Below are positions 1-63,348 of a stretch of 64,000 bases of DNA, piece after piece; positions within the stretch are counted from its first letter, which is position 1; the number at the start of each line of letters is the position of its first letter. The DNA lies in the IMG/VR virus record IMGVR_UViG_3300042691_029887, positions 10,845 through 74,844 of that record. One strand, written 5' to 3'. Both the position numbers and the translations under genes were made by a program. This DNA comes from a virus. Its lineage: Duplodnaviria; Heunggongvirae; Uroviricota; Caudoviricetes. The notes under the pieces were generated by a model. The model did not search any database, was not told where the DNA came from, and worked only from the letters and a program-made list of their open reading frames with translations.

Positions 1-144
1 AATTGATCTCTTGTTACTGGTGCAAAGTCTACATATTCTAAAACATAGGCCATGCCTGAACAACCAGTGGTCTTAACACCTATTCGTATGCCTAAACCCT
101 TGCCCCTACGTTCTAAATTTTGTTTGATTTTAGATGCTGCAATT

Positions 145-534
145 TCAGTTAACAAGATCATGCTTTTCTTTATAATCTTTTATGGCCGCTTGAATCGCGT
201 CTTCAGCAAGAATTGAGCAATGTATTTTAACTGGGGGGAGTGCAAGCTCTGTGGCGATCTCAGAATTCTTAATAGATCCTGCTTCTGCCAACGTCTTACC
301 TTTGAGCCACTCCGTAACGAGTGATGAACTTGCGATTGCTGATCCACATCCGTAAGTTTTGAATTTCGCATCTTCAATGATTCCTTCATCGTTTACCTTT
401 ATTTGTAATTTCATTACATCACCACAGGCAGGTGCTCCTACCATACCAGTACCAATGTTAGCATCATTTTTGTCAAAGCTACCAACGTTGCGAGGGTTCT
501 CGTAGTGATCTATAACTTTGTCGCTGTACGCCAT
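145..534 (-). CDS. iscU: Fe-S cluster assembly scaffold protein IscU/NifU-like
   Basis: 129 aa; conserved IscU Cys motifs [24 protein letters not shown] and LPPVK. Confidence 0.92.
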
Positions 535-547
535 ATCTTATTCCTAA

Positions 548-877
548 TTAAACTGAAAAACTGCTACCACATCCGCAGGTAGTCTGAGCGTTTGGATTCT
601 TAATTGTAAAACTATTACCAGTCAAATCCTCAGTGTAATTGATCTCTGCGCCGATTAGATACTGATAACTCATAGAATCTACTAATATTTTAACACCAGA
701 TTTTTCTATCACAAAATCGTCCTCATTTTGTTCTTCATCAAAAGTAAATCCGTATTGAAATCCTGAGCATCCGCCACCTTGGACAAATGTTCTTAATTTT
801 AAATTAGGATTATTTTCTTCTGCTAACAAATCGGCAATTTTTGTCACTGCTGATTCTGTAACTATAATTGACTCCAT
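548..877 (-). CDS. iscA: IscA/HesB/ErpA-family Fe-S cluster insertion (A-type carrier) protein
   Basis: 109 aa; family-typical C-terminal CGCGSSF motif; immediately upstream of iscU. Confidence 0.85.
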
Positions 878-878
878 A

Positions 879-1436
879 TCAAGTTCCTAATCTAATGTTA
901 ACAACGTCCCAGTCTATGATACGCCATATATTTGCAAGATATTTGGCTTTATCTTGCTGGTAATCTAATGCCCAGGCATGTTCCCAAGCATCTATTAATA
1001 GTGCGATTTTCATATTCTTTTTGTATTCGTGATTATGTATAGTGTGTAGTTTTCCAGAGGTATCCATATAAATCCAATTAGACCCTTGTGCTACCATAAA
1101 TTCTTTTTCAAAAGCATCTTTAAACTTTTCAAAACTACCATATACTTCATCTATTGTTGTCTTAGAAGTGCCATTTGGTTTGTTTGCTGCTCTGGCAGGG
1201 GCCAGATTGCCAAAAAACAAATTATGTAAAATAGCGCCGCCGTAGTTAAAGTCAGCATCACCTTCTCCTTTGTTGTAACGTTCGTAGTATTTGGCTGCTA
1301 ATCCATCGTAATGATATTTTATAGTAGCCTCACTCATAACAGGATCAAGCTCATTTTTGCTGTATTTGAGCCTGTTCTGATTAATTTCTCTAATGTCCGA
1401 AGACTCTTTTAAACTTTTAATAAATCTCATATTCAT
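879..1436 (-). CDS. Fe/Mn superoxide dismutase
   Basis: 185 aa; N-terminal HHDKHH-like region ([11 protein letters not shown]...) and C-terminal DAWEHAW..Y metal-ligand motif. Confidence 0.88.
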
Positions 1437-1444
1437 AATGCTAT

Positions 1445-2449
1445 TTATTTTAATTTTTTTAAGTATTCTGCTAAATTAATCATATCGTCTTTGGTATTAT
1501 TATGATCCCATTTCACTTTAATCACTCCTTTAGTAGAGTACTGGAGTATGTATTCATCAATATCAAAAAACCCGAATTCTACATCAAAATCTTTTAAAAA
1601 ATCATAGTTCTTATCTAAATCCATATTATCAGTGTAAAAACTTATGATTCCGGCTTTATAATATTCTGGACATAAAATCTTAATGTGATCACAGTCCTGT
1701 AGTTCGCCTAGGAGAGTAGCACTTAATAGTAGATATTTTGTTTTAAGATCATCAACTCCTTGATCCAAAATATCAGTTAAACTTTCTATGACAAATGTTA
1801 AAAAATTAGAATTTATTTTTTCTAACTCTAATCTATTTGGTAACATAAGACTTTTGGTGCTTTTAGTAAAAATGGGGTTTAATTTTTCTAACTTTTTGTA
1901 ATCCCCGTATAAAAATCCTAATCCCTCGCCAACACCGATATTCTCAGAATCAAAGAACAAGAAATCTGTGGATTGATCTTGTACGTTTATAGGTTCACTG
2001 ACTATACTATCGTTACAGTTTAATACAGTAATACCTTCATATTTTTTAACTAAAGAAAATAGTTCTTTTATTGGTTGAAGGATGCCTGTAATTTCATTTA
2101 CATGCGATATGAAAAATAAAATTCTACCTTCAGAATTTTCTAAAAGTTCTTCTAAATGAGCTAAATCCAATGTCCCATTTTTGATGACATTAACACGTTC
2201 TAACGAGCAGTTACTTTTATTTTGTAAGTGTTGCAGTGCAGAAGTATATTTTGGTAATTCATTTTCAGGAAATAGTATAAGGTCTCTAGGCCTCCAAACT
2301 ATGCCCTGCGTAATAATATTGATCGAATGAATTGAATCTGCTGTAAAGATTATTTCATTTGATTTTCGTGCATTGATCAGTTGTTTGATTTTGTTTCTTA
2401 CAGTTTCTTTTAATTCTGAATTAACTGTTGAAAAATTCTTTGACTTCAT
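1445..2449 (-). CDS. aminotransferase class V / cysteine desulfurase (SufS/IscS)-like protein, probably degenerate (PLP lysine replaced)
   Basis: 334 aa; colinear with SufS/IscS fold (IIFTADS...; VNEITG...; GITVLNCNDSIV) but the SGHK PLP-Lys motif reads DSEN. Confidence 0.5.
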   Translation of the reverse strand: MKSKNFSTVNSELKETVRNKIKQLINARKSNEIIFTADSIHSINIITQGIVWRPRDLILFPENELPKYTSALQHLQNKSNCSLERVNVIKNGTLDLAHLEELLENSEGRILFFISHVNEITGILQPIKELFSLVKKYEGITVLNCNDSIVSEPINVQDQSTDFLFFDSENIGVGEGLGFLYGDYKKLEKLNPIFTKSTKSLMLPNRLELEKINSNFLTFVIESLTDILDQGVDDLKTKYLLLSATLLGELQDCDHIKILCPEYYKAGIISFYTDNMDLDKNYDFLKDFDVEFGFFDIDEYILQYSTKGVIKVKWDHNNTKDDMINLAEYLKKLK

Positions 2450-3245
2450 CTTTTAGATCTTCAAATTCAATTAAATTTAAAATTAAACCTCGATGTGATT
2501 CTAATAATATTTCTTTGGCTCTTTGAACTTCAATTCCTCTGGTTCTCAAGTACCACAATTGTTCCTCGTCAAATTCCCCAATACTACAACTATGATTAGC
2601 TTCTACTTTACCGCAGTCGATAGCTAACTGTGGTATACTAAATGCCTGTCCACTTTCGTCAGTAATAATACTTGCATTATTAATTTGTGTATAACTGTTT
2701 ATCATATCTTCTACGATTCTTACATGCCCTTGAAATACAGTTCTGCTCTCTTTTCCTGAAACGCAATTTACTATTTGATTGGTTTCGACATTAGGGCCTT
2801 CATGATGAATTTTTGATATAATTTCGCTACTACCACCTTCTGTATTTTCTGCGATTCCAAATATACTGATAGAACTATTTTCGCCAGCTGAACATTCAAA
2901 AATGTGTTTATTTAATTTTCCGTTTTTGATAAAAACGCCAATATTTAAATTTGAATCAGGTTGTGCTTCGATATGATACAAAAAAACTTGCTGGGTAGTT
3001 GAATCACCTTCACACAAAATAAACAAATTTAAGTTGCTAGATTCTTTACCTATAATCTGTAAATGTTTACATAATAGATCGGATTCAGTAGGATTTAATC
3101 TTAAAACAACACTGTCGTCTGTTCCTTCTTTTATCATTAAACAGTTAGCATCAATTACCTTAAACTGTTTTCCAAAATAATGATTAGGACTATAAGTCCA
3201 ATCCGGATCTCTTTCGTCAACTTTTAAAAAACTTTCAATAGCCAT
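2421..3245 (-). CDS. SufB/SufD-family Fe-S cluster assembly protein
   Basis: 274 aa; C-terminal GEFDEEQLWYLRTRGIEVQRAKEIL matches the conserved SufB/D motif (GqlDeEaLFYLrSRGi..eeA). Confidence 0.72.
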   Translation of the reverse strand: MAIESFLKVDERDPDWTYSPNHYFGKQFKVIDANCLMIKEGTDDSVVLRLNPTESDLLCKHLQIIGKESSNLNLFILCEGDSTTQQVFLYHIEAQPDSNLNIGVFIKNGKLNKHIFECSAGENSSISIFGIAENTEGGSSEIISKIHHEGPNVETNQIVNCVSGKESRTVFQGHVRIVEDMINSYTQINNASIITDESGQAFSIPQLAIDCGKVEANHSCSIGEFDEEQLWYLRTRGIEVQRAKEILLESHRGLILNLIEFEDLKDEVKEFFNS

Positions 3246-3948
3246 TAGTTCTTATCCTTTTAAGAATTTTTTTGTCACCTGTCTTAACTATTTTTCCATT
3301 AGACATTAAATGAACTTTAGTTGGCGATAGTGAATCTAGTATTTTTGTACTACTAGTGAATATTAGAACAATTTTATCATTGTTTTTTAGAAAATTTTGT
3401 ATTTCGTTAGATATAAATTTTACAGTATCCTCGTCAACACCATCTTCTAAATCGTCTATCAAAATTAATTCAGGATTAGAACTAATCATTTGAGCGATTT
3501 CATTTTTCTTTCTTTCAGAAGGAGTACTTCCTAAATTAAAATCTTTATCTTTCCATTCAGAACCTAACTCAAACTGTTTGATCAAATTTTTATAACTTTG
3601 TAAAATATCAGTTTTGCTCTTTGAATTTCTTTTTGTTTTTGACATTTCAACAATTAATGAAGAATTTGAAATCCCCAAAATATCAGGTGGATTTTGAAAA
3701 GAAAGAAAAATTCCTAAATTGTTTCTTTCTTCAGAATTTAGGTTAAAAATATTTTTTCTTTTAAAAGTGATTTTACCAGAATCAGCTCTATATCTAGGAT
3801 GCCCTGCAATAATATTACCTAGGGTACTTTTCCCACATCTTTTAGGCCCAATGATAGCATGGATTTCTCCGGGCGTTGCTTCTAAGTTAATATTTTCTAA
3901 TATTAAGATTCCATTTGAAGAGACGCTTACATTTTCTATTTTTAGCAT
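3235..3948 (-). CDS. sufC: SufC-like ABC ATPase of the Fe-S cluster assembly system
   Basis: 237 aa; Walker A GPKRCGKST, ABC signature, Walker B LILIDDLEDGVD; gene order sufC-sufD-sufS-like. Confidence 0.82.
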   Translation of the reverse strand: MLKIENVSVSSNGILILENINLEATPGEIHAIIGPKRCGKSTLGNIIAGHPRYRADSGKITFKRKNIFNLNSEERNNLGIFLSFQNPPDILGISNSSLIVEMSKTKRNSKSKTDILQSYKNLIKQFELGSEWKDKDFNLGSTPSERKKNEIAQMISSNPELILIDDLEDGVDEDTVKFISNEIQNFLKNNDKIVLIFTSSTKILDSLSPTKVHLMSNGKIVKTGDKKILKRIRTNGY

Positions 3949-4106
3949 TTGACTATTTTACCTTAATTATTATTTTTATAGTCTGTGTGTACACACTATT
4001 GTACGTTGTTTAACGGGTTAAGTCAATCTCCTTTTTTTGATACTTTCAAAATTTATTTATCGCTCTTAAACAAGGCATAATTAATAGACAAGGAGGTTAC
4101 GTAACC

Positions 4107-4499: not shown

Positions 4500-4691
4500 T
4501 TAATTTTCTAGTAGTTTTTTAGATTTTGTGATTTCGTCCAAAGTCTTTAATTTTTTCTTTTTTAAATAGTTTACTAGTGCATCATCTTTGTATCTAGAGT
4601 GATCTTCTTGAATTTGCTTATCTAAGTCATCATGTAATTTCTGTAAGTAAGCTATTCGATTGTTTATCTTTACTGAGGTTAGATTTTTCAT
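4500..4691 (-). CDS. hypothetical protein (start uncertain)
   Basis: ORF directly after the terminator; Lys-rich; 5' end overlaps the uvdE-like gene. Confidence 0.3.
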   Translation of the reverse strand: MKNLTSVKINNRIAYLQKLHDDLDKQIQEDHSRYKDDALVNYLKKKKLKTLDEITKSKKLLEN

Positions 4692-5712
4692 TTGATACTC
4701 CTGTAAAATATTTGTGTAATTCAAATGATGCAAGATTTTTGGCTTTACTTTCACACATGACGTCTGCCCATTGCCAGTGTGTAGCTGCCCAACTATTTAC
4801 TGCATCATTCCAATAGAAGTTAGAATGTGCTCGTAATTTTGCTTTCTTATGTCCTGATTCTAGGAGGGCCTGAAGAGCGGGACGGGTGTGTCCGGGATGT
4901 TCTCCAAGTAAATTTTCCCTAGAAACAGAGTAGTGTATGACAGGACGCACACCGCGCCAACTATCAATAATCCTTTTAATACGGTCGTCATTTTCTTCAA
5001 TATATTCTCCTGTGTGTATCCAATGATGGTGTATGTCTAGCACCAAAGCGAGATCGTTTGCCAATTCGAGGCTGGCGTCGATTCCCCAACTGATTTCGTC
5101 GTTTTCGATAGTAATACAGTTTCTCGCTTCTGGTGAGAGACGCCTAAGTGCGGCTTTGATACCGGCTGGACCGGCTCTACCCGCGATGTGGACATTGATT
5201 TTAAAGTCCTGGAACGATGTGCCATAGCCCATCCATCTAACCATATCTGCATGATATTCAAACTCCTCTATACTACGCTGAACAATATCAGCATTGTCAC
5301 TTGCCAACACAGTGAATTGACCAGGATGAAAACTAAGCCGAACGTTACGGGCTCTAGCAATATCTCCCACTTCTCTAAAATGTTTGCTGGCATAATCCTG
5401 TACATCAGCTTGACGCCAAAACCAGCACCAATCGCGCTGAGTATACACAGGAAGAAGGTCACTGCTAAGACGTACCATACGTAGCTCATTATCTAAATTA
5501 CCTACTCTTTCTACTAATAGTCTAGTTGATTCAATGTTTTGTTTTACCAATGACCAAAGTTTTTCAACGGCAACGTCTTTACTTTGTCTATTTAACCAAG
5601 ATACTGTAGTAGCACCGGTATTGTATTTTTTACAGTCATCTTTGGGGCTGATTCCATCTACTTGATCAGGGCGATCAATCCATTTACAGGCGAAACCGAT
5701 ACGTTTAGTCAT
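4630..5712 (-). CDS. uvdE: UV damage endonuclease (UvdE family, TIM-barrel)
   Basis: Start chosen at MTKRIGFAC; UvdE-like motifs RIGFAC, ENDEISWG, LDIHHHW, HSNFYWNDA. Confidence 0.68.
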   Translation of the reverse strand: MTKRIGFACKWIDRPDQVDGISPKDDCKKYNTGATTVSWLNRQSKDVAVEKLWSLVKQNIESTRLLVERVGNLDNELRMVRLSSDLLPVYTQRDWCWFWRQADVQDYASKHFREVGDIARARNVRLSFHPGQFTVLASDNADIVQRSIEEFEYHADMVRWMGYGTSFQDFKINVHIAGRAGPAGIKAALRRLSPEARNCITIENDEISWGIDASLELANDLALVLDIHHHWIHTGEYIEENDDRIKRIIDSWRGVRPVIHYSVSRENLLGEHPGHTRPALQALLESGHKKAKLRAHSNFYWNDAVNSWAATHWQWADVMCESKAKNLASFELHKYFTGVSNEKSNLSKDKQSNSLLTEIT

Positions 5713-5965
5713 GATGAATAATAAGAAAGGACATAAAGCTATTATAGCAGTATGCCCTTTGTTTGTCAAGGATAAATCTACCAATGTCTAATTACATTAG
5801 CGATGATAAAAAAGCAAGTTATGATGTGTATTATTACCCAAAATGTTTTGAAAAATAATGCTATCCTTGCTTCTCTAACCGTTAAAATGGGAATATCTGG
5901 ACGATCATCGTCAGTTTTTCCCATTAAGTGCCCAGTTGCCCGAGCCCAGATTTTTTCAAAACTGT

Positions 5966-6481
5966 TCATCCTTCGTATGTAGCTGAGTTAGCACCGTGTT
6001 CAAATACTTCAACTGATTTAACTCTTACTGTTGGATTAATTGGATAGCGCATTGTGCCTGATGCTAATAGTTCAGCCATTTTGTCAAAACACATTTTAGC
6101 AAACATTTCGCAACCTACACCATCTACTACTCGCAAATCACAAATCGCACCACGTTCGTGTGGAACATTGCTGTCTGGATTTGCAGAACCCATGTTAACT
6201 GTTGATGCAAGGTGTTTAAAAACATCTAGCATTGGATCGTCTTTGGCAACAACCAGTGTATGATCAAACATGTGATCGGCCCATGCTTTGAATTCTTTAA
6301 GACCGCCAAAGTCCATACACCAGTTTTTGTCATCTAGTGTGTCACATTCAAATACAAGTTTGATACCAATCGAGTATCCGTGCAGTGTTGAGCAATGACT
6401 GTGTGTTGCTCTCCACTGTCTAAAACAGCATGACAGCCCTCTGTCGTTACCGTAAGTTTTTGTTGAATAAAATTTTGCCAT
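5966..6481 (-). CDS. 6-pyruvoyl-tetrahydropterin synthase / QueD-family protein
   Basis: 171 aa; CxxxHG(Y) zinc-site-like motif CSTLHGY plus downstream E/D/H residues typical of the PTPS fold. Confidence 0.5.
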   Translation of the reverse strand: MAKFYSTKTYGNDRGLSCCFRQWRATHSHCSTLHGYSIGIKLVFECDTLDDKNWCMDFGGLKEFKAWADHMFDHTLVVAKDDPMLDVFKHLASTVNMGSANPDSNVPHERGAICDLRVVDGVGCEMFAKMCFDKMAELLASGTMRYPINPTVRVKSVEVFEHGANSATYEG

Positions 6482-6900: not shown

Positions 6901-7980
6901 TTATTCCTGTATTATGCCAAATTGTAGCCATTTGCCGGGAGACCCTGAAACAACACAGACCCACCCAATCGGCGAATTTGTCTGTGGATTTTCGTTCCAA
7001 ACTATGTCTCCTCTTTTATAGTTACCTTTATTTGGAGGAGAATTATCTACCATGAAAAGTTTTCCAGAAATTTTTATACTGCCTCGTATGTCTAAATCAA
7101 CTTCGGGATTTTTAACATTAATACCTACTTTCCCCCATACTCTTGTGGTGACGTCTTCTTTATATTCATTGCCAATAGTTAATACTCCTTTTGGCTCTAA
7201 AGTGATCAATGTAAGATCACCGACGGTTAAATCAAATGGTCTGTTATTAAAAGTTCCTATTCGAGCCCTACCATTATCTACATCAATATTCATGATAACA
7301 TCTTGTTCGATGTCACTGATAGTAATGGTACCTACTGGTTGTTCGGTATTGATAGCTATTCTTTGTTGATCAGAACTGAATCGCACAAATTCAGATAAGT
7401 TCACATCTCCAGTTACATTTAAACTGTGTAATGTGCCAACTTCTCTTAGGCTACTTTTTCTTATTGTAGATCCTAATGTATTTTTGTTTAGTACATCTAC
7501 ACCATCTATTTTGTAAGATTTTTCTGGCGGCAAATCAAAATTTTCTGTAGAAAAGAATCTATCTGGATTATTTTTAAAAACAAATAGTTTGGTATAGTCT
7601 CTACCCTTCCAAATCAATCCACTGCCGTTGGGATTAACAGAAACATCTATAGGCTGAAATTCCAGATACATTTTATCATATGTTCTATCTGAAACCAATT
7701 CTGTGACTTTTAATTTTTCTATTCTTAATTCACCAGTAACGTGAAGATTGCCTAGTAATTGTACATCACCGTCAATTCTTTTAGTTTCGATTATATCTAC
7801 TTCTATTTTATTGTCTTTAATAACTAAAGAAGTTTTAGTAGATTGATCAGATATTCCTGTACTGGAAAAGGAAGAGACGCAACCTCCGGAAATTAAATCT
7901 CCGGAGATTTCGCCATTATTGATGTTTAATTGATTAAACTTTATATTTTTTAATAATTCACTACTGTTAAATGCTGGCAT
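6901..7980 (-). CDS. hypothetical protein (beta-rich, possibly structural)
   Basis: 359 aa ORF, ATGA-coupled to clpP; no recognisable motif. Confidence 0.5.
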
Positions 7981-8566
7981 TTGGTCGTTTATCTACTATA
8001 TGATCCACTAGTCCGTAATCTAAGGACTCTTGTGCATTCATATACTTATCACGCTCCATATCCAAGCTCAGTTGATCAAAAGTTTTTTCTTTGCTGTTGT
8101 GTTTAACATAAATTCCTGTCAGCTCTTTTTTGATCTTTAGTATTTCTTCAACTTGAATCTGCATGTCTGTAGCCTGCCCTCGGGCACCACCACTAGGTTG
8201 ATGTATCATGTGTCGAGCATTAGGCAACATATATCGTTTTCCTGGAGTGCCTGATTGTGCTAACAAACTGCCCATACTACAGGCCTGTCCCATGACATAT
8301 GTACAGACATCAGGTTTAATGAATTGCATGGTATCATAGATACTCATACCTGCAGTAACTACTCCGCCAGGACTATTGATATACATGTGTATATCACCTT
8401 CCCCTTCACTTTCTAAGAACAGTAATTGCGCTACAATTAAATTAGCCATGTAATCTTCAACTTGTCCATTTAAAAAGATTACACGATCTTTCAATAGACG
8501 ACTATAGATATCATAGGAACGCTCACCTTGACTACTTTTTTCTACTACGATTGGTACTAAACTCAT
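7967..8566 (-). CDS. clpP: ATP-dependent Clp protease proteolytic subunit ClpP
   Basis: 199 aa; ClpP motifs INSPGG, catalytic Ser in GQACSMGS, His in MIHQP. Confidence 0.93.
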
Positions 8567-16589: not shown

Positions 16590-16676
16590 TGGTGCCCGGA
16601 GCCGGAATCGAACCGGCACGCCCTTTCGAGCGAGAGATTTTAAGTCTCTTGTGTCTACCTATTTCACCATCCGGGC
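16590..16676 (-). tRNA. tRNA-Leu(TAA), type II with long variable arm, CCA encoded
   Basis: Acceptor GCCCGGA/TCCGGGC; anticodon arm AGAGA-CTTAAAA-TCTCT; T-arm CCGGTTCGATTCCGG; 3' ACCA. Confidence 0.85.
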
Positions 16677-16730
16677 AGTAAGTTACATTAAATTATAGTG
16701 TCAATGTTTTTGTTAGTCAAGAATTATTTT

Positions 16731-16822
16731 TGGTACCTCGGGCGGGAGTCGAACCCACATTGGCCAATTATCTGTTGCACACGGGATATAAATCCGCTGT
16801 TTTACCGTTAAACTACCGAGGT
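16731..16822 (-). tRNA. tRNA-like gene, ~92 nt, long variable region, anticodon uncertain (loop TTTATAT, possibly Ile-UAU type); unusual A1-U72 start
   Basis: Perfect 7-bp acceptor ACCTCGG/CCGAGGT + ACCA; D-arm GTTT-AACGGTA-AAAC; T-arm GTGGG-TTCGACT-CCCGC; the anticodon stem has a mismatch and there is a 22-nt variable segment. Confidence 0.55.
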
Positions 16823-16934
16823 GCAAATTTAAATTAGCGTATTCGTATTCGAGGTGATAATCGTGAAGAAACGACCTGCGACTGTGCAGTCTGGAAATTA
16901 TCTAATTTGATAACGGTCGTTTTCATAAATTTAT

Positions 16935-17558
16935 TTATCTTTCTTTTTCTACTTCAGGTAGAACTTTAATGATCTTCTTCAACAATCTTTTTATGGTAGG
17001 GTTATTTGTCCCACCAAATAAATTCATATAAGCCCAAAGATTTACGCTCTGTTCAATAGTTATTTTACTAGCATCAGCTAATAATGTCAATACATTTTGA
17101 GCATCTGTGTAATCCAAAAGTTCATTAGCAATATTGTAACTATAGGCATCAATTTCATCTTTATTACTTAGATATGAAATTGGGTCATCTACGTTTACAT
17201 TATATGTATCTTCCCAAAATCTACTTCTATATTGTCTTTGATGTATCTGTTCATGACTTATTGTATCACATAGTCTTTTGATTACATTACTGAACAGTTC
17301 ATCGTCAAAAATAAGAGTCTTATCTAATGGGTTGAAGACAAAATAAACCTGAATACAAGGTCTATTCATGCTATCTAATTCATAGTCATAATATGCTGAG
17401 AAATTAAGATCTCCGATATCAACTTCATTAGCATCGCATGTAAGTATATCTGCTCGAAACGTTTCAGATATTGGTTTTCCGATTATTTCTGCTATTTCAT
17501 TTTTAGTTCTAGGTACCCCAATTAAATCTTTTTTTAGATTTAACATTAGGTCATGCAT
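16935..17558 (-). CDS. hypothetical protein with HExxH motif (possible zinc metallopeptidase-like)
   Basis: Start chosen at MHDLMLNL giving ATG/TGA coupling with the upstream ORF; motif TISHEQIHQRQ. Confidence 0.4.
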   Translation of the reverse strand: MHDLMLNLKKDLIGVPRTKNEIAEIIGKPISETFRADILTCDANEVDIGDLNFSAYYDYELDSMNRPCIQVYFVFNPLDKTLIFDDELFSNVIKRLCDTISHEQIHQRQYRSRFWEDTYNVNVDDPISYLSNKDEIDAYSYNIANELLDYTDAQNVLTLLADASKITIEQSVNLWAYMNLFGGTNNPTIKRLLKKIIKVLPEVEKER

Positions 17559-17757
17559 CTGTTTCCGAGTTACCGGCTTCGTCGACCACTTTTTTTTCGA
17601 GCGTGAACGTGCCATTTTTGTTATCCTTCCAAAGGATTGTGTCCCCAATTTTCCAGCCAATTTCTTCAAGCATCTCATCTGTAAATTGGATGTAGTAATC
17701 ATCCGTTTCTTCTTCGTATTTAACTTCCAGACTATAACTCTTATTCATGAATGACAT
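17551..17757 (-). CDS. small acidic hypothetical protein
   Basis: 68 aa. Confidence 0.4.
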   Translation of the reverse strand: MSFMNKSYSLEVKYEEETDDYYIQFTDEMLEEIGWKIGDTILWKDNKNGTFTLEKKVVDEAGNSETDA

Positions 17758-17993
17758 CTACTTTTTGAACATTAGCAACTCTAAACGAACGCCATTGTTT
17801 TTTGTCCATGCACCAAACACTGATGACATCTTGATTAACAGGTTTATCGTCTTTGGCATCTTTTTCAACCAATACAGGAAGTTCTGATTCCAATAAAGTG
17901 CAAGGCATTACTCTAACTTCACCATTGACTTTAGTAAATGTTACCTCACAAATATTGTTTTTGAGCAAAGAACTCAATTGATTATAATCTAGT

Positions 17994-18404
17994 TTATCCA
18001 TCAACATTTTCCTTATGTAAATTAAACCAAGAAAGAACTTCCCATCCGTCGTATTCTTTCATAGAAATCAAATGCTGTGAAAGAAGTCTTGACAGCATAC
18101 TATAATGTCCACTGGCGGTGGAAACACTTTCTAAAATTTCATCCCAATTTCGATGACCAAATGCTCCGGAATGATATGCTATACTAAATTCCTTCCAAGC
18201 ACGATCTTTCATAGTAGGTGTGGCCCAAATTCCCAGATACTTTTCACAAGCAATCATCATTGCTTGATTTCTAGTCATGTAGATACCATTCCAAACTGCG
18301 AGATTACAGTCACTTGCTTTGTCAAAAAAGCATATAGGTCTAGGGTCTAGTAAACTCCAACTATGATACTTAGAAAGCAACGTCGTAGTCTGATTCTGTT
18401 CCAT
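17994..18404 (-). CDS. hypothetical protein
   Basis: 136 aa. Confidence 0.4.
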   Translation of the reverse strand: MEQNQTTTLLSKYHSWSLLDPRPICFFDKASDCNLAVWNGIYMTRNQAMMIACEKYLGIWATPTMKDRAWKEFSIAYHSGAFGHRNWDEILESVSTASGHYSMLSRLLSQHLISMKEYDGWEVLSWFNLHKENVDG

Positions 18405-19017
18405 TGAATTTCCAATTAAAGTTATGATGATTTTCGATAATGTTTTTCACCGTTTCACTTTTAGGTACATATCCATAAGTAACATATTTTATAAGTCGTT
18501 TTACAATATCTGAATGAGGATGTTCTTTGGTGAATTCTAAAACATGATCTTTGATATGTTGAGCAGTTTTCTCTCCTAATTCTAAGGAATGACCATCAGT
18601 GACTAACTGACATACTGTGATATCAAACTTATCAATGATTTCCTTAGCAGTTGAGAACCATTCTTTTCTAATTAATTGAACTCTCTTCAATGCACCGTTG
18701 TCAGAATGTACATGTAAGGTAATAGCATTGTCAGAGTTATAAACCATATTGGCTTTACCTTTTGACATCAATTCACCAAAACAAACATCGAATTGCTTTT
18801 GATCTTTAAAAAATACATCAATATCACTATCTTCGATAGACTGATTCTTATACCAATTTAGAACAGCACCACCGGCAATCCAAGGTCCTGTTTTCATGTT
18901 TGGGGATATAAATGTGACTACCGGTCTATCTAACTCATGTACAGTTTTAAGTTTATTAGTTGATTGCCCCCAATCCCCATTAAAATTAAAACCAGGAAGT
19001 CTGTTGGTCCAAGACAT
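18370..19017 (-). CDS. putative nucleotidyltransferase (pol-beta superfamily-like GG...DxD motif)
   Basis: Start placed at MSWTNRL; motif IAGGAVLNW-x9-DSDIDVFF resembles the hG[GS]...DhD NTase signature. Confidence 0.35.
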   Translation of the reverse strand: MSWTNRLPGFNFNGDWGQSTNKLKTVHELDRPVVTFISPNMKTGPWIAGGAVLNWYKNQSIEDSDIDVFFKDQKQFDVCFGELMSKGKANMVYNSDNAITLHVHSDNGALKRVQLIRKEWFSTAKEIIDKFDITVCQLVTDGHSLELGEKTAQHIKDHVLEFTKEHPHSDIVKRLIKYVTYGYVPKSETVKNIIENHHNFNWKFNGTESDYDVAF

Positions 19018-19018
19018 A

Positions 19019-19849
19019 TTACACCTCAAAACTAAAATTAGGATCGAAATTGTTTGCTTGCGTTTCGTAACCCATATACCCACGCGGGTTAGTAACAACT
19101 CGTGTGTCACCTATCATGTAATCGCAGGGATCATGCATGTGGCCATGACACCATACTTTGATCTGTGGATGATCTAAAATAAAATTTTCTAGATTACTAC
19201 GATAACCACCATTCATATAATAGTCTTTTTTGTAGCATTCATTGACGCTGAGTTCGCTTGGAGCGTGGTGAGTTATCACAACACACTTGTCATCCTTGTG
19301 ATTTTTTAACCACGCTGACATTATCGAAATTGTTTCGTGAAAAATACCTTTAGCATATTCTGGATTAAATTTGCTAGTATAATATCCATCATATTGGTTA
19401 CCGACTTTTACGCCATGCCCCATTTTAATCGAACCAGCAAAGTCACTCATAGCTTGTTTAAGATGATGCATACTGATAGGATCACCTTTGTTCATGTCAG
19501 TCCACATTGTAGCACCAAAAAAATGTACGTCGTCAATCTGAATTTCGTCATTCTCAAGCAGATGTACGTTGTCTGGCATTTCACGAAGCAAACGAGCGTG
19601 TGTGTCATGATAGGCATTCCTATAGTGTTCGTGGTTGCCTTTAACATACAGCACTTTTTGATATTTGATTAATTCTTCATTTATAAAACGTCGATACCTA
19701 TCAGCAATATCAGTGTTATGTTGAGCGTTATCTGCTTGGCGTAGATGACCTGCTTCCATTATATCACCTGCCATAATTAGAATATCCCCGCCAGGCATTT
19801 TTATGTCTGCGAAGTTTAGGTGCATGTCACTTACAAGATTTATTTTCAT
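19019..19849 (-). CDS. calcineurin-like metallophosphoesterase
   Basis: 276 aa; motifs VSDMH, MAGDI, VKGNHEH, CHGHMH characteristic of MPP superfamily phosphoesterases. Confidence 0.75.
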   Translation of the reverse strand: MKINLVSDMHLNFADIKMPGGDILIMAGDIMEAGHLRQADNAQHNTDIADRYRRFINEELIKYQKVLYVKGNHEHYRNAYHDTHARLLREMPDNVHLLENDEIQIDDVHFFGATMWTDMNKGDPISMHHLKQAMSDFAGSIKMGHGVKVGNQYDGYYTSKFNPEYAKGIFHETISIMSAWLKNHKDDKCVVITHHAPSELSVNECYKKDYYMNGGYRSNLENFILDHPQIKVWCHGHMHDPCDYMIGDTRVVTNPRGYMGYETQANNFDPNFSFEV

Positions 19850-19863
19850 ATTACTTCCAAATT

Positions 19864-19940
19864 TGGCCTGACCGGAGGGGCTCGAACCCCCGACCCACAG
19901 CTTAGAAGGCTGTTGCTCTATCCAACTGAGCTACGGTCAG
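19864..19940 (-). tRNA. tRNA-Arg(TCT), CCA encoded
   Basis: D-arm GCTC-AGTTGGATA-GAGC; anticodon arm ACAGC-CTTCTAA-GCTGT; T-arm GGGGG-TTCGAGC-CCCTC; acceptor CTGACCG/CGGTCAG. Confidence 0.88.
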
Positions 19941-27157: not shown

Positions 27158-27841
27158 CTATTTACCAATTTCAGGGAACAGACAATCTTGTATGAATACA
27201 CGTACATCTTCCTCATTTAGCCCTAAACTAGCCATTACACGCGGTGTATGGGGGTTTTGCTTTTGATTGTATGCGTAGTAGTTTTGTTCTTCTTTAGTAT
27301 TGTTAGCAGTATTGTTAGTTTCGCCTACAGTTTCTAAATAGTGATTAATACTGTCTTTAGCAAACTGTACAATCTGATCTAGTTCTTCCTGCTTTTGCAC
27401 GTTACCTGCGGCTATCATACTTCCGCTAAAAATACGCTCTGCCCAATCAGGAAGTTTGCGTACTTTATTCCATTCTAGTTTCTGTGCTTCGTCCGCAAAG
27501 TAGTCTAGCATTGGATGTTCTTTATCGCCGCCTGGACTGTAGTCTATGAAACAGCCAGTAATTTTATTCTTGCCTGCGATAACATCGAACCCAAATATCG
27601 GTGCCGGATTATGTGTATGAGGGAAGACACAACAGTGCATCATCCACAAGCCTTTAGTCTCTCTAGCATCTACTACATCTATATGTGCTCTGCGATAATT
27701 ATCAGAAGTCCATACACGATTGACCCAACCAGGCTGATTGAATCTATCCATTCCTGGTTCTTGTGTTTCTACACCTGTGTTATTGAAACTCTCTTCCAGT
27801 AGTGTCTGTATTTGAATCAATGTATTCCAGACTTGGCTCAT
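27158..27841 (-). CDS. ferredoxin-dependent bilin reductase (PebA/PebS/PcyA family)
   Basis: 227 aa; FDBR signature LWMMHCCVFPHTHNPAPIFGFDVIAG...CFIDYSP (HxxxFP...PIFGxDxV...DxSP) and N-terminal W..RRAHIDVVDA block. Confidence 0.72.
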   Translation of the reverse strand: MSQVWNTLIQIQTLLEESFNNTGVETQEPGMDRFNQPGWVNRVWTSDNYRRAHIDVVDARETKGLWMMHCCVFPHTHNPAPIFGFDVIAGKNKITGCFIDYSPGGDKEHPMLDYFADEAQKLEWNKVRKLPDWAERIFSGSMIAAGNVQKQEELDQIVQFAKDSINHYLETVGETNNTANNTKEEQNYYAYNQKQNPHTPRVMASLGLNEEDVRVFIQDCLFPEIGK

Positions 27842-28379
27842 TATAAAGTTCCTTCATCATTTTAATTGCCCACTCAAAAGCCACACGAGCTTCGTCGCCA
27901 AGATCATCAGTTAGTTCAGATCTTATAGAAACTTTGAGTTCTTCTGGATTTTTAAAATCATAGAAGCGACCTTTTGAAATATGAGCTACTTGTTTCTTGA
28001 TTATCTGACCTCCGTATAAATCACCCATGTGTCTACAATACAAGTGTGCTTTTATTTTTGGTCTCTGTTGTGGATCACGTACTAGATCTAATAGATAATT
28101 GTAATACTCTAATGTTCCAGGCAACCATTTGTATTTGTGATCAACACCTGCGATTTCAATAAAATCTTGATAGATTTCATGAGTGCGTTCTAATCCTGGA
28201 AGTTTAGTAAAATTTCCTTCTACACGATTACCGAGTTCTATGATGTTGTAAATTAATACCATTTGATAAAGATAATTTGCATAATCTTCTTTATCTATTT
28301 TGCCACTTAATAAAAGTTTAGCAAACTTTGTAGTTTCTGCGTCATGATGAAGATCTTTTGTGATTTCTTTTAAGCTCAT
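27780..28379 (-). CDS. heme oxygenase
   Basis: 199 aa; HO N-terminal helix with proximal His (LKEITKDLHHDAETTKFAK), YxxxxxxY and GDLYGGQ-like motif (MGDLYGGQII). Confidence 0.75.
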   Translation of the reverse strand: MSLKEITKDLHHDAETTKFAKLLLSGKIDKEDYANYLYQMVLIYNIIELGNRVEGNFTKLPGLERTHEIYQDFIEIAGVDHKYKWLPGTLEYYNYLLDLVRDPQQRPKIKAHLYCRHMGDLYGGQIIKKQVAHISKGRFYDFKNPEELKVSIRSELTDDLGDEARVAFEWAIKMMKELYNEPSLEYIDSNTDTTGREFQ

Positions 28380-28382: not shown

Positions 28383-28685
28383 TCATTCCGATTCAATTTT
28401 GACAGTTAATGGATGACCAGCGGCTCTTGCGATAGCAGTAGTTTCTATTCCTTTCTGCTCGGCGATTTCAAAAGGATAAACACCCACAACAGCAAACCCG
28501 TCGTTGTGAATTTTTAATGTTAAATTTTGACTGACTTCTTCATTGTGATGAAATATATTCACCAGAACTTCTATGACAAAATCCATAGGAGTTTTATCAT
28601 CATTTACAAAAATAACTTTAAACTTTCTTGGTTCTATGATATTAGTAGTAACGAGATTTTTTTGTTCAGTTGCTGTATCAGCCAT
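28383..28685 (-). CDS. clpS: ATP-dependent Clp protease adaptor ClpS
   Basis: 100 aa; NDDKTPMDFVIEVL...LKIHNDGFAVVGVY...AGHPL collinear with ClpS. Confidence 0.85.
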   Translation of the reverse strand: MADTATEQKNLVTTNIIEPRKFKVIFVNDDKTPMDFVIEVLVNIFHHNEEVSQNLTLKIHNDGFAVVGVYPFEIAEQKGIETTAIARAAGHPLTVKIESE

Positions 28686-28765: not shown

Positions 28766-29209
28766 TTACTCAGAGTATTTGACGTCTATTCTTCTAGGCT
28801 TCAAAGATTCTGGAACGATCTTTTCTAGCCTAATAGTCAATACACCATTTTTCTGCTCAGCATCAACAACTTCAATATGATCGGCAAGTGGAAAATGACG
28901 CTTGAAATTACGCTGTGCAAGCCCACGATGGATAAAATTCTTTTCATCGCTATCGTCATTTCTTTCAGCTGTAATGATCAAGATATTTTGGTCAATCTCT
29001 ACACTGACTTCTTCTTTATTGAATCCAGTGACTGCTACTTGGATTTCGTACTTGTTTTCTTCCACTTTTACAACATTATGTGGAGGATAGTTGTTACTTA
29101 ATTGATTAGCAAAACGTCTTTCAAAATTATTAAAAACGTCGTCAAAACCAATAAGTGCTCTGTTTAGAGCGTTAAGTGCATTTGTATCAAATCTTACTAA
29201 TTGTGTCAT
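28766..29209 (-). CDS. small heat-shock protein Hsp20/IbpA family
   Basis: 147 aa; alpha-crystallin domain YEIQVAVTGFNKEEVSVEI...GVLTIRL; strong RBS AAAGGAGA. Confidence 0.85.
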   Translation of the reverse strand: MTQLVRFDTNALNALNRALIGFDDVFNNFERRFANQLSNNYPPHNVVKVEENKYEIQVAVTGFNKEEVSVEIDQNILIITAERNDDSDEKNFIHRGLAQRNFKRHFPLADHIEVVDAEQKNGVLTIRLEKIVPESLKPRRIDVKYSE

Positions 29210-29261: not shown

Positions 29262-31148
29262 TTATTCAGGCTTAGTTGCATCCTTAAATTCAGCCTCTAC
29301 AACATCACTCTGTTCTTTAGACTGATTTGTTTCAGAATTCATCTTGGCCTGTATCAAAGCTGAACTTGATTCTAAAAGTTCAGTCAGTGATTTGTTGATG
29401 GTTTCAACATCATCAAGTTTGACTTTTTCTTCTAAGTCTTTGATAGCATCTTCGATCTTAGTTTTTTCATCTACTGTGATCTTGTCACCATGTTCAGAAA
29501 GTTCTTTTTTAACAGTATGTAATTGACCTTCTGCGTTATTTCTAATATCAATAAGTTCTCGCTGTTTCTTATCTGATTCAGCATTTTCTTCTGCTTCACG
29601 AATCATATTTTGAATTTCAGCATCACTTAATCCACTATTTGCTTTAATAGTAATTTTATTTTCCTTGTTAGTCTTTTTATCTTTAGCACTAACACTTAAA
29701 ATACCGTTGGCATCAATGTCAAACGTAACCTCAATTTGAGGCATGCCACGTGGTGCTGGATCAATACCTTCTAGATTAAATTCACCTAGTATTTTGTTGT
29801 ATCGGAATAGTTCTCTTTCACCTTGACCAACTTTGATAGTAACAGCAGGTTGATTGTCGTCAGCGGTTGAAAACACCTGACTTGCTTTAGTTGGTATAGT
29901 TGTGTTTTTCTGAATCAACTTTGTAAAAACACCACCCATTGTTTCAATGCCCAAGCTCAATGGAGTAACATCCAATAATAGAACATCTTTACGATCACCG
30001 CCTAGAACAGCTCCTTGAACTGCTGCGCCAGCTGCCACTGCTTCATCCGGATTAACATCTTTACGTGGAGCCTTACCAAACAGTTTTTCAACTGCTTCTT
30101 GTACTTTAGGCATACGAGTTTGACCACCAACCAAGATAACTTCATCAATGTCATTAGCACTCACACCAGCATCTTTCATTGCGATCTTACAAGGTTCAAT
30201 AGAACGCTGGATAAGATCATCAACTAATGATTCTAGTTTTGATCTAGTTATTTTAATATTTAGATGTTTTGGTCCACTGGCATCTGCTGTGATGTATGGT
30301 AGATTAACTTCTGTTTGATTACTATTTGATAATTCAATTTTTGCTTTTTCAGCAGAATCTTTTAGCCTTTGTAGAGCTAATTGATCATTTTTTAGATCGA
30401 CTCCGTTTTCTTTCTTAAATTCATCAACCAAGTAATCCATAATACGTTGGTCAAAGTCTTCACCACCTAGGAATGTATCACCATTAGTGCTTAGAACTTC
30501 AATTTGTTTATCGCCATCTACATTAGCGATTTCAATAATACTTACATCAAATGTACCACCACCAAGGTCGTAAACAGCCACTTTGCGATCAGCTTTATCA
30601 TTTTTATCAACACCATAAGCAAGAGCTGCCGCAGTAGGCTCGTTAATAATACGGAGTACTTCTAGTCCTGCAATCTTACCTGCATCCTTAGTTGCTTGGC
30701 GCTGGCTGTCATTAAAGTACGCAGGAACAGTAATAACTGCTTGAGTAACTGTTGTCCCAAGATAGTCTTCGGCAGTTTTCTTCATCTTGCGAAGAACTTC
30801 TGCACTAATCTGAGGTGGGGCTAAATCTTTGTCATTAGCCTTAATCCAAGCATCACCATTAGATGCTTCCATAATTTGATATGGCATTAGATTAATGTCT
30901 TTTTGTACAGCATCTTCTTTGAACTTTCGTCCAATCAAACGCTTGGATGCATAAATCGTATTTTTAGGGTTAGTAACTGCTTGACGCTTTGCTGAGGCTC
31001 CAACTAGGACTTCGTCATTAGCGTAGGCAACAATACTGGGAGTAGTCCTAGCACCCTCGCTGTTTTCAATAATTTTAGGAATTCCGTTTTCGACGATAGC
31101 CACGCATGAATTGGTGGTGCCGAGGTCAATACCGATGATCTTTGACAT
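29262..31148 (-). CDS. dnaK: molecular chaperone DnaK (Hsp70)
   Basis: Start at [14 protein letters not shown]; Hsp70 signatures [27 protein letters not shown]; 628 aa. Confidence 0.97.
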
Positions 31149-31178
31149 ACATATCTCCTTATAAAGTAAGATCAATTT

Positions 31179-36909: not shown

Positions 36910-37083
36910 TTATTTAAAATACTTTGTATCAAAAATAATAACTAATCCTACAATTATCCAAAATACAGCGGCTACCATATTTCCATAACTGGCGCCTAAT
37001 ATTCCATTTAAAATATTAAGACCGCCAATAGTATATCCAATCGACGTGCGATTTGTTTGAAACCATTCTAAAAATTTATTCAT
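36910..37083 (-). CDS. small membrane protein (57 aa; below the ORF-track cutoff)
   Basis: MNKFLEWFQTNRTSIGYTIGGLNILNGILG...; ATGA-coupled to the exonuclease stop codon. Confidence 0.35.
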   Translation of the reverse strand: MNKFLEWFQTNRTSIGYTIGGLNILNGILGASYGNMVAAVFWIIVGLVIIFDTKYFK

Positions 37084-37616
37084 TTTCTTGCCACCTTTCT
37101 GAACATGTTTTGTACTCCCACTGCCTGCCTGTAAGCATCTTCTAATGCGTTATGCTTGGCATGTTTTGGCATTTCAGGATCATACCCTAAGTCAAATATT
37201 GTCCTAGTATCCCTGATCTGCCAAAAGTTCCAAGGAAAAGCCTTGCCTAGTTTTCTGTAATACGTTTCTAGAATCATGATATCAAAAACACTACCATGAC
37301 TCCAAAATGCATCACACCCCCAAGCAAATTTATGGAACTCATCTATGACTTGATTGATTGGAAATCTGTTTTCTGGATTAAAGGCTTCGTCAATAATTTC
37401 AGGGGATTGTTTCCCCCACCACTCCAGTGTACCTGGATCTATGATCATTCCTAAAGTTTCACAACTTTCTGTTTCAATTCGACGATAAAGGATGTTATGT
37501 TCACTTCTATCAACATTAGGTCCCCAAGGATCGAATTTGACTGCGCCCAATGTAAGTATCACAGAATTTGGAGTGGTCGCTAAAGTCTCCAAATCAACCA
37601 TAAGATGTTTTGCCAT
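37080..37616 (-). CDS. DEDDh-family 3'-5' exonuclease (DnaQ-like)
   Basis: 178 aa; Exo I VDLETL, Exo II HGSVFDIMIL, Exo III HNALEDAYRQA. Confidence 0.65.
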   Translation of the reverse strand: MAKHLMVDLETLATTPNSVILTLGAVKFDPWGPNVDRSEHNILYRRIETESCETLGMIIDPGTLEWWGKQSPEIIDEAFNPENRFPINQVIDEFHKFAWGCDAFWSHGSVFDIMILETYYRKLGKAFPWNFWQIRDTRTIFDLGYDPEMPKHAKHNALEDAYRQAVGVQNMFRKVARK

Positions 37617-37647: not shown

Positions 37648-37884
37648 TCAATAATTTTTTGGGGGTAATTTGTTCTTTTCGAGCTTTTTAAGCCAACGTG
37701 CCCTTGCGGCACCAGCAGCTCTTTTGCGTCTTTCGCTGGGCTTTACATAGAACTGCTTTTCCATCAAATCTTGTAAAGTACCGTTCTCTTCGACTTTCTT
37801 TTTGAATTTTCGTAATGCTTTATTAAAATCTCCATCAACGTAAACAGTTGATCCTTGCAATTTATTCTCTTTAAATTTTGCCAT
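37648..37884 (-). CDS. rpsU: 30S ribosomal protein S21 (bS21) homolog
   Basis: Basic ~78 aa; [22 protein letters not shown]...[19 protein letters not shown] collinear with bS21; start may alternatively be 37911. Confidence 0.72.
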
Positions 37885-39091
37885 ATTCTTTCTTTTTATT
37901 GTCAAAGACAAATATTGGTAATCCTTGTTTGTTAACTGATTCTTTATTTACCAAAATCTTCTTTAAACCCTTTTTGGATAAATCCTGTGCTTCAAATTGA
38001 TAAGGTATTAATAGTTTTTCTATGGTAGTTCTCAAACCTCGAGCATTTGTTTTTGATACTATGCTAGATTCTACTATCTCTATCAACGCATCATCTTCAA
38101 ATTCTAGTTCGATACCATCTAATTCAAATAAAAATTTATATTGTGATATCAAGTTGTTTCTAGGCTCTATTAGTATTCTTACTAGGTCTTCTTTTTTAAG
38201 TTCTTCTACTGACGTTAGTATATTAAATCTGCCTACAAATTCCGGAATAAGTCCAAATTTAATTAAATCTTTTTGAGTTACTTTAGAGTAAATTTCATCG
38301 GAAGATGACAGCCCTCCTAAGTCACTATTAAATCCTATTGACGTAGGATTCAATCTCTGCCTAATAATGTTTTCTATTCCTATAAAACTACCACCAACAA
38401 TGAACAATATATTTTTGGTATCTACTTCGACTTCTTCTTTCTTCTTACCAAAAATCAAATTAACTATGGTTCCTTCGATCATCTTTAATAAAGACTGCTG
38501 TACACCTTCTCCACCAACATCTTTAACATTTGTATTGATATCACCTTTTTTACTAATCTTGTCTATTTCATCTATATAAATGATTCCGCGACTAGTAGCT
38601 TCAATGTCACCTTCAGCTCTTATCAAAAGTTGTTGGATAATATTTTCTACATCATCACCTACGTAACCTGCCTCAGTCAATGCTGTAGCATCGCAGTGTG
38701 CAAAAGGCACATCAATATATTCTGCAATTTTTTTGATCATTAATGTTTTCCCACATCCAGTAGGACCAATAATCATTACATTACTTTTATCTAAATCAAC
38801 ATAACTGGTTAAAGAAGTAATGCGTTTATAGTGTTGACTTACTCCAACTGACAATGCTATTTTTGCCTCATCTTGACCTATAACAAACTCATCAAGATAT
38901 TCTTTTATTTTAACAGGATTGAATTTTGATATGTCCTGCTCTTTAATTTTTCCGTTTTGCTCTTTTAAAATTTTATCACAGAGCTCCACACATTCATTAC
39001 AAATGGCGCCATTTTGTCCTACGACCATTTTTTCGACATCTTCTTTGCTCTTTCCGCAGAAATCACAGTTTTTAGTTTTCATCGTGCTCAA
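37871..39091 (-). CDS. clpX: ATP-dependent Clp protease ATP-binding subunit ClpX
   Basis: 406 aa; N-terminal C4 zinc finger CDFCGK...CNEC; Walker A GPTGCGKT; LIDEIDK; sensor/arginine-finger region. Confidence 0.93.
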
Positions 39092-50237: not shown

Positions 50238-50241
50238 AATT

Positions 50242-52359: not shown

Positions 52360-52365
52360 GCAATT

Positions 52366-53478: not shown

Positions 53479-53524
53479 TGGGGTCTCCGTATCCTATTGT
53501 AGTGTATTTATTACTTGAGATTCG

Positions 53525-61908: not shown

Positions 61909-61928
61909 AAAATAATGTGTCAAAACTA

Positions 61929-63236: not shown

Positions 63237-63251
63237 TCTATAAAGTTTCAT

Positions 63252-63341: not shown

Positions 63342-63348
63342 AATTTAT

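Follow-up and report, generated by a model that had tools for sequence, protein, structure and literature searches.

The question raised by the locus described here is whether a phage carries its own working pathway for the biogenesis of iron-sulfur (Fe-S) clusters. The locus lies in a stretch of 64,000 nucleotides (nt), referred to below as the window, which covers positions 10,845 to 74,844 of IMG/VR virus record IMGVR_UViG_3300042691_029887 (Caudoviricetes); its source is a giant (jumbo) freshwater phage. Close to the window start, genes of the SUF (sulfur mobilisation) and ISC (iron-sulfur cluster) families follow one another on the minus strand, and an original prediction proposed that they boost host Fe-S assembly to mature five radical S-adenosylmethionine (SAM) enzymes encoded by the same virus. 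The explanation favoured here, with moderate confidence, is that the module is a phage Fe-S operon part-way through reductive evolution, in which the SUF-derived half has lost catalytic residues and the ISC-type half would serve a cluster supply fed by host IscS.

Composition of the operon and integrity of its proteins

Six consecutive minus-strand open reading frames (ORFs) lie head to tail at 145-3948, and the families originally proposed for them were borne out by their coordinates and by Pfam and NCBIfam profile matches. The first gene of the operon (3235..3948) encodes a SufC-like ABC ATPase scoring 203 bits against TIGR01978, just under the equivalog cutoff of 212.8. It is followed by a SufD-like protein of 274 amino acids (aa) (2421..3245; PF01458, 116 bits; TIGR01981, 129 bits against a cutoff of 222), a SufS-like class-V aminotransferase of 334 aa (1445..2449; PF00266, 108 bits; TIGR01979, 106 bits against a cutoff of 475), a divergent Fe/Mn superoxide dismutase (SOD; 879..1436), an A-type carrier (548..877) and an IscU scaffold (145..534). 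These matches uphold the description of the set as a SUF/ISC hybrid. A seventh gene, encoding an IscA-type carrier, was overlooked earlier because the window start cuts it, leaving its first 53 codons (3..161, minus strand). The complete carrier gene, previously named iscA, does encode an A-type carrier, but one of ErpA type, with 179 bits against equivalog NF010147 (cutoff 117), and is distinct from the IscA-type gene that runs off the window start. The six genes had also been described as overlapping, which is true of the SufC/SufD (11 nt) and SufD/SufS (29 nt) junctions; the others are separated by 1-13 nt. SufD is translationally coupled to SufC. A promoter-like site on the minus strand, TTGACT-17-TACAAT (3998..4026; 10/12 matches), is found 50 nt ahead of the start codon of SufC; the total of such sites in the window is not above shuffled expectation, and the evidence for a sufC promoter is weak. 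The same promoter/terminator scan found no terminator-like site within the module. The GC content of the SUF-derived genes (0.28-0.31) is below the window mean of 0.355, and that of IscU is 0.42.

The SufS-like protein reads as a pseudoenzyme that has kept the fold of its family and lost the active site. Its AlphaFold2 model (predicted local distance difference test score, pLDDT, 87) had E. coli and B. subtilis SufS as its top Foldseek matches, with template modelling (TM) scores of 0.87-0.88, and is thus predicted to retain the fold-type I class V aminotransferase fold. Missing are about 55 N-terminal residues, including the NxHRG segment, together with the His-His motif, the D..Q motif, the type-II beta-hairpin and EAGTP. 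The Lys that binds pyridoxal 5'-phosphate (PLP; K226 in E. coli) has been lost through replacement of HK by EN, and the loop bearing the catalytic Cys (C364) reads FFDI in place of GHHC and contains no Cys. Comparison with the closest relatives (related loci are numbered with the prefix L) showed that, of the 16 nt differences that separate the window from L098, 10 fall in this one gene (binomial P=0.0025), three of them nonsynonymous. Furthermore, locus L099 (IMGVR_UViG_3300047564_004182), which is 99% identical to the window, carries a frameshifting 25-nt deletion in the gene (L099:1040-2035, corresponding to window 1445-2449); the deletion lies between short AGA repeats, and the neighbouring genes are 99.8-100% identical to those of the window. 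Because of this substitution excess and the frameshift, SufS is probably vestigial and dispensable in the window lineage.

In alignments with E. coli SufC and its family, the window SufC keeps Walker A (GPKRCGKST) and the Q-loop (FQ). In place of the signature FSGGE it has STPSE, its Walker B with the following Glu reads LIDD instead of ILDE, and its H-loop shows TS where TH would be expected; signature, catalytic Glu and H-loop His are thus all missing and the ABC catalytic set is incomplete. It is the most degenerate SufC of all loci compared. The gene is nevertheless still under purifying selection: it differs from that of L098 by three synonymous and no nonsynonymous changes, and from that of L016 with a nonsynonymous divergence (dN) of 0.25, the synonymous divergence (dS) being saturated.

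Its partner SufD was modelled with a pLDDT of 92.5 as a beta-helix with three C-terminal helices, and the best structural matches of the model were SufD chains (5awf_B and 5awg_F, TM 0.75-0.78). At 274 aa, as against 423 aa in E. coli, it lacks the E. coli N-terminal domain. The C-terminal 'YL(R/Q)SRG' helix region is kept, as is the His ('EANHSCS') equivalent to E. coli H360, which together with SufB C254, C405 and E434 is among the essential sulfur-acceptor or cluster-site residues of E. coli (PMC5571166). The short SufD constitutes a discrete family, represented by six full-length clusters at 50% identity, plus fragments, among 1.84 billion representatives. Scores drop from 293 to 122 bits at the cellular SufB/D proteins, which are mostly ~380-450 aa long and do not match the first 30-60 positions of the short SufD profile, and all members of the family that could be located lie within the jumbo-phage synteny described below. 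Among the phages SufD is always about 274 aa long and is most strongly conserved in N-terminal turns that have no match in cellular SufD. Cys residues 35, 78, 118 and 161 (also 59, 211 and 220) are conserved in module classes A-C, defined below, and all are absent in class D; the first four are spaced 40-43 residues apart, about one coil of the beta-helix, and might be either ligands or the rungs of a structural ladder.

The remaining genes gave a different result. IscU shares about 86% identity with its E. coli counterpart (PDB 2L4X) and, when aligned to it, has all of its functional residues (C37, D39, C63, LPPVK, H105 and C106); it passes the TIGR01999 equivalog cutoff (229 bits against 192) and is 81-91% identical among related phages. 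The ErpA-type carrier has the three Cys ligands (GGGCSG ... CGCG) and shares 31-37% identity with IscA-type carriers from related phages, its nearest cellular counterparts being ErpA proteins of freshwater Betaproteobacteria (70-75% identity). The closest 'cellular' match (75%) lies on a 2.5-kb contig (L018, JBAXNN010000048.1) of a 'Thermoleophilia' metagenome-assembled genome, beside an ATP-dependent DNA ligase-like gene, and looks like a phage contig binned with that genome. For the truncated IscA-type carrier, the peptide encoded by window 3-161(-) agrees at every position with residues 1-53 of a 108-aa ORF (L001:8289-8615) on an IMG/VR contig that is 99% identical to the window; the full-length protein ends in CGCGESF and keeps the three Cys and the CGC motif, and its orthologues in L005 and L009 match TIGR02011 (IscA) at 131-153 bits. 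The SOD is more divergent, scoring 76 bits against the Pfam Sod_Fe_C domain, 22 bits against the N-domain (cutoff 27) and 40-63 bits against NCBIfam models whose cutoffs exceed 300. When it is aligned to SODs of known structure, its four metal ligands (His, His, Asp, His) are all seen to be present. It is orthologous to the SODs of L005 and L012, with which it shares an N-terminal hairpin deletion of ~18 aa relative to E. coli SodB; in those two loci the gene lies upstream of sufC or sufB, which indicates that it has moved in the window lineage. Since every ligand is kept, IscU, the ErpA-type carrier and the SOD look functional.

The conserved residues expected of the module are therefore present in IscU, the ErpA-type carrier and the SOD and absent from SufS and SufC, and the assumption of a functional SUF half did not hold. 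Partner proteins were sought among all ORFs of at least 70 aa in the 64-kb window, the genome itself being at least 75 kb and possibly ~340 kb long. SufB, SufE/SufU, IscS, HscB, ferredoxin, CyaY and glutaredoxin were not found among them. A phage DnaK was considered as a stand-in for HscA and rejected, as it scores 997 bits as DnaK and 626 bits as HscA. The window thus contains neither a complete SUF system, with SufB and a working SufS with SufE/SufU, nor a complete ISC system, with IscS, HscB/HscA and ferredoxin beside IscU/IscA. As SufB, SufE and IscS are absent from the module, sulfur mobilisation or SufB-based scaffolding would not be possible with its own products.

Module classes and selection in related phages

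IMG/VR was scanned with a SufD-family alignment and the neighbouring genes were typed, with flanks of 7-10 kb examined at each relative locus; together with the window and other fetched loci this gave 44 loci representing 37 distinct lineages. A conserved gene order was found, consisting of ClpP, a fibre-like gene, QueD, UvdE, [SOD], the module, a 95-aa gene on the opposite strand and a 2,900-3,200-aa protein. This synteny recurs in 38 IMG/VR loci and in further contigs. They come from many different samples, have among them a JGI contig of 340,750 bp and IMG/VR contigs 200-355 kb long, and confirm a viral origin of the region, as opposed to a fragment or contaminant from a host.

Four classes of module were distinguished. 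Class A (four lineages) has the order [SOD]-SufB-SufC-SufD-SufS-SufE-(SufT)-SufA, and complete SUF systems were found in its loci L012, L101, L107 and L112. Class B (eight lineages, including the window) has SufC-SufD-SufS-IscU-IscA with a degenerate SufS, class C (one lineage) has SufC-SufD-IscU-IscA without SufS, and class D, the commonest (24 lineages), has [SOD] followed by SufC'-SufD' alone, this pair being the sole Fe-S-related genes within about 7 kb on each side. In class A all motifs are canonical, and the equivalog cutoffs are reached by both SufB and SufC (252.9 bits for the SufC of L012). The ABC signature has been lost in every SufB-less lineage, including class D, in which the signature is uniformly missing from SufC' and Walker A, ILDE and the H-loop His are mostly still there. 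The His equivalent to SufD H360 was present in 5/5 class A loci, 8/12 class B loci and 1/26 class D loci.

The SufS genes could be arranged in a series of increasing decay. In L100 and L102-108 the Cys, the beta-hairpin and the NxHRG segment are missing, HH and HK being kept; L005 has additionally lost the PLP Lys, L003 and L008 show further losses, in L016 and the window the N-terminus is missing as well, and in class C the gene has gone. Judged from these sequences, losses appear to have followed a defined order, with SufB lost before the SufS Cys, which was followed in turn by the PLP Lys, the catalytic residues of SufC and finally the SufS gene. The ranking of conservation is also altered, from SufC > SufS > SufD in class A to SufD > SufC > SufS in class B.

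The direction of these changes was argued from motifs and not from tree topology. The SufD of class A locus L101 is 63-65% identical to class B proteins and 54% identical to that of class A L012, so that class B appears to lie within class A diversity. This was not confirmed by a neighbour-joining tree of SufC, however, in which class A was monophyletic in 46/60 bootstraps. In the same tree phage SufC was monophyletic in 60/60, class D in 59/60 and classes A+B+C together in 42/60 bootstraps, and as D and A+B+C are sister clades the polarity of loss cannot be taken from the branching. Because the motifs are canonical in both class A and cellular SufC, their regain is implausible and phage SufC is monophyletic, the ancestor was canonical, and classes B/C and D were therefore both derived by loss.

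Among deep relatives dS was saturated in every pair and dN lay far below it. As saturation means that dN/dS (omega) provides bounds only, the close pairs L102/L103 and window/L098 were used instead. For L102/L103 (IMG/VR 3300008108_003817 and 3300032307_000369; dS 0.3-0.8) omega was 0.058 for SufC, 0.048 for SufD and 0.053 for the Cys-less SufS, compared with 0.046 for UvdE and 0.010 for ClpP. Values of about 0.05 imply that the early degenerate SufS and the SufC'-SufD' pair were under selection and not drifting. None of the 44 loci lacks the pair or its translational coupling, and its ORFs are intact in 37 lineages at identities down to 36%. In the L102/L103 comparison SufC, SufD and SufS are 92-96% identical, IscU 87% and IscA 65%; from these lower values the downstream IscU-IscA pair seems to have been replaced by recombination or re-acquisition.

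Candidate clients and competing explanations

Five radical-SAM genes lie on the plus strand of the window at 47874-48950, 54965-56029, 56026-57645, 57645-58715 and 58712-59620, with matches to Pfam Radical_SAM and PHROG 1802. The claim that there are five, probably with auxiliary clusters, was supported by these matches and by their Cys motifs: each protein carries CxxxCxxC, several have Cys-rich C-termini or SPASM domains, and by domain type there are one SPASM, one borderline SPASM and one B12-radical-SAM-like protein. They are 44 kb from the Fe-S module in a separate island; four of the five fall in a low-GC region (window 50000-60000, GC 0.27-0.31) together with glycosyltransferase-like genes and genes of no assigned function. 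The B12-radical-SAM-like gene (56026-57645, 539 aa), the one radical-SAM gene searched against IMG/VR, had no relative there, and the island thus looks lineage-specific.

According to the explanation favoured here, an ancestor of the jumbo-phage family would have captured a complete SUF operon. On the branch leading to the window, SufB, SufE and SufT would have been lost and an ISC-type IscU-IscA pair gained, and in the window lineage an ErpA-type carrier would have been added and the SOD gene relocated to the operon. During infection the phage IscU would take sulfur from host IscS and use host HscBA and ferredoxin, and the IscA-type and ErpA-type carriers would pass clusters to apo-proteins, perhaps including the phage radical-SAM enzymes. 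The SOD may limit superoxide damage to exposed clusters, SufC-SufD would remain as a non-catalytic or weakly catalytic complex and SufS would be vestigial. Several points weigh against this explanation. All of its functional claims are computational, and the activity in the host of the divergent SOD, IscU and the carriers is read from their residues. Dependence on host IscS is an assumption that rests on the gammaproteobacterial type of IscU and the betaproteobacterial type of ErpA. A desulfurase, SufB or HscBA could be encoded elsewhere in the genome, the L099 deletion in SufS could be an assembly error instead of a real pseudogenising allele, and the link to radical-SAM clients, although plausible, consists of co-residence in one genome. 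Finally, the role of SufC-SufD is left unexplained although the pair is the most conserved part of the module and occurs in 37 lineages, which fits poorly with its being a remnant.

Alternatively, SufC'-SufD', with the degenerate SufS where it is present, may have been neofunctionalised as a phage-specific complex to which IscU, the carriers and the SOD are independent additions; its new task might be to handle iron or clusters for IscU, to capture host SufB or to act outside Fe-S metabolism. Its presence and coupling in all 44 loci, its isolation within ~7-kb flanks in 24 lineages, the omega values near 0.05, the constant SufD length with conserved N-terminal turns of no cellular match, and the retention in most class D proteins of Walker A, ILDE and the H-loop His despite the uniform loss of the signature are all consistent with such a complex. 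As an account of the whole window operon it is considered unlikely, as no partner or activity has been identified, the window SufC is the most degenerate of all, and the Fe-S gene neighbours in classes A-C suggest a continuing Fe-S-related role. The narrower proposal, that SufC'-SufD' is a new two-protein machine made from SUF for something other than canonical scaffolding, joined in some lineages by a Cys-less SufS as a non-enzymatic subunit, may be entertained as a tentative possibility. The opposite view, that the three SUF-derived genes are junk awaiting deletion and that IscU, the carriers and the SOD alone matter, draws on the progressive motif loss, the deletion of SufS in class C, the L099 frameshift and the substitution excess in the window SufS. 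It is highly improbable, since SufC' and SufD' are intact in 37 lineages with dN far below dS and omega near 0.05, and it could apply at most to SufS in the window lineage.

The pathway might instead be complete and self-sufficient, with SufS providing sulfur, SufC/SufD acting as an ATP-driven scaffold and the five radical-SAM enzymes being matured, as the six family assignments, the auxiliary-cluster-type Cys motifs of the radical-SAM proteins and the full canonical operon of the class A relatives would allow. The loss of the PLP Lys and Cys from SufS and of the signature, Glu and His from SufC, and the absence of SufE and of SufB, whose residues C254, C405 and E434 are essential in E. coli (PMC5571166), make this very unlikely. 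The loss of every catalytic residue from folds and likely interaction surfaces that remain conserved, in genes under purifying selection, would also suit a decoy or dominant-negative role, in which dead SufC, SufD and SufS bind host SufB, SufE and SufS and divert iron and sulfur to the phage IscU. However, SufS is frameshifted or deleted in close relatives and hence dispensable, and class A phages have a fully functional SUF system, which argues that the ancestral selective value was supply and not inhibition; a decoy was therefore judged distinctly unlikely. An artefact, in the form of a host-derived fragment, contamination or chimeric assembly, deserved consideration because most GenBank 'phage' records that contain suf genes carry host contamination, examples being contigs of Staphylococcus and Listeria and the record of Microcystis phage MaAM05. 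Given that 44 independent contigs, which reach 355 kb, all show the synteny among phage-like genes, and given a SUF gene GC below the window average and a short SufD without a close cellular member, it is scarcely credible here.

Known systems and genomic neighbourhood

Viral genes for IscU/NifU, A-type carriers and SufE have been reported from marine viromes and environmental viral genomes (PMC5332604; PMC8940887), and in large T4-like marine phages they co-occur with radical-SAM genes and ClpP, and the idea that they serve viral radical-SAM enzymes has been published (PMC5332604). The window module resembles these auxiliary metabolic genes in its phage-encoded IscU of gammaproteobacterial type, its A-type carriers, the co-occurrence with radical-SAM genes and ClpP and the proposed role in Fe-S cluster supply during infection, and, like them, it is embedded in viral genomes and conserved among relatives (38 IMG/VR loci and other contigs). 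Unlike the published cases, which are single genes or pairs, it is a seven-gene operon with SufC, SufD, SufS and an Fe/Mn SOD; it also has relatives with a complete sufBCDSE-T-A operon, and a decay series joins the two states. The literature searched yielded no report of a complete phage SUF operon, of SUF-derived phage pseudoenzymes or of a SufB-free SufC'-SufD' pair.

Several candidate precedents were rejected. GenBank 'phage' records of Staphylococcus, Listeria and Enterococcus with suf genes look host-derived. In Microcystis phage MaAM05 (L004, MW495066.1 262000-273876) sufB-sufC-sufD-sufS-iscU lies at the end of a linear record; the block adjoins panB, panC and a gluconeogenesis factor, and the arrangement is host-like, so that the record may be chimeric. 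A paper on the jumbo phage 'Moraphage' mentions no suf or Fe-S genes.

With bacterial SUF (E. coli SufABCDSE; SufBC2D, PDB 5AWF; SufC2D2, PDB 2ZU0) the window shares fold homology and the gene order C-D-S, but it differs in lacking SufB and SufE, in its short SufD and in the lost SufC catalytic motifs and SufS active site. The likeness to bacterial ISC lies in the closely similar IscU, which corresponds to the scaffold, and in the IscA-type and ErpA-type proteins, which correspond to two carrier tiers; the A-type carrier relay runs from IscU to IscA/SufA to ErpA. In contrast to bacterial ISC, no IscS, HscB, HscA, ferredoxin, IscR or CyaY was found in the window, and those of the host would be needed. 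A further parallel is the archaeal SMS (SUF-like minimal) system, in which one ABC-type ATPase, SmsC, is paired with a single short beta-helix protein of matching fold, SmsB (PDB 9H78), of 289 aa compared with 274 aa for the phage SufD. Membership of SMS was nevertheless rejected, as the SmsB model gave 17.5 bits against a cutoff of 650; the window SufC scores 137 bits against SufC and 90 bits against MJ0035, and the phage pair differs from SMS in being derived from SufC/SufD and in having lost the ATPase signature.

New in these data are that jumbo phages can carry a whole sufBCDSE-T-A operon and that a cofactor pathway has left a natural, stepwise record of being dismantled and re-plumbed onto host enzymes. 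To our knowledge, the roles of SufD and of ATP hydrolysis by SufC in the SUF system, possibly in iron acquisition, are not fully settled. SufC'-SufD' outlives the other parts, and this question could be approached through such a SufCD, which occurs naturally without SufB and is under strong selection. Virome surveys that count 'sufS' or 'sufC' as sulfur-mobilising or ATP-driven functions will over-call metabolic capacity.

Around the module, UvdE and a QueD-like 6-pyruvoyl-tetrahydropterin synthase (window 4630-5784 and 5966-6481) are fixed neighbours across the phage family; no QueE-type radical-SAM gene was identified in the window. The 95-aa protein just past the module has two CxxC pairs and is Zn-ribbon-like (L001:8617-8904(-); L005:12767-13054(-)), and the large protein that follows it (2,877-3,185 aa; L005: 13136 onward) had no Pfam match. 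A proteostasis set comprises ClpP, ClpS, Hsp20, DnaK and ClpX (window 7967-8566, 28383-28685, 28766-29209, 29262-31175 and 37871-39091), of which ClpP belongs to the conserved synteny near the Fe-S module. The genes for a heme oxygenase and a ferredoxin-dependent bilin reductase stand side by side and overlap (27158-28379); such bilin-synthesis pairs are known from cyanophages and other aquatic phages, and the bilin reductase requires reduced ferredoxin, an Fe-S protein.

PADLOC returned generic ABC and DndA/SspA-type similarity only, with no defence-system assignment. Ribosomal protein S21 (37648-37911; Pfam, 53 bits) adjoins a 3'-5' exoribonuclease (37080-37616), and a cell-wall hydrolase is also encoded in the window. 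A 406-aa gene product has relatives in Caulobacter phage Cr30, Pseudomonas PA5oct jumbo phages and Sinorhizobium phiM12-type phages. The window further contains 11 tRNA genes (16590-19940 and 61834-63789), eight of which form an array at the 3' end, where the GC content is 0.45.

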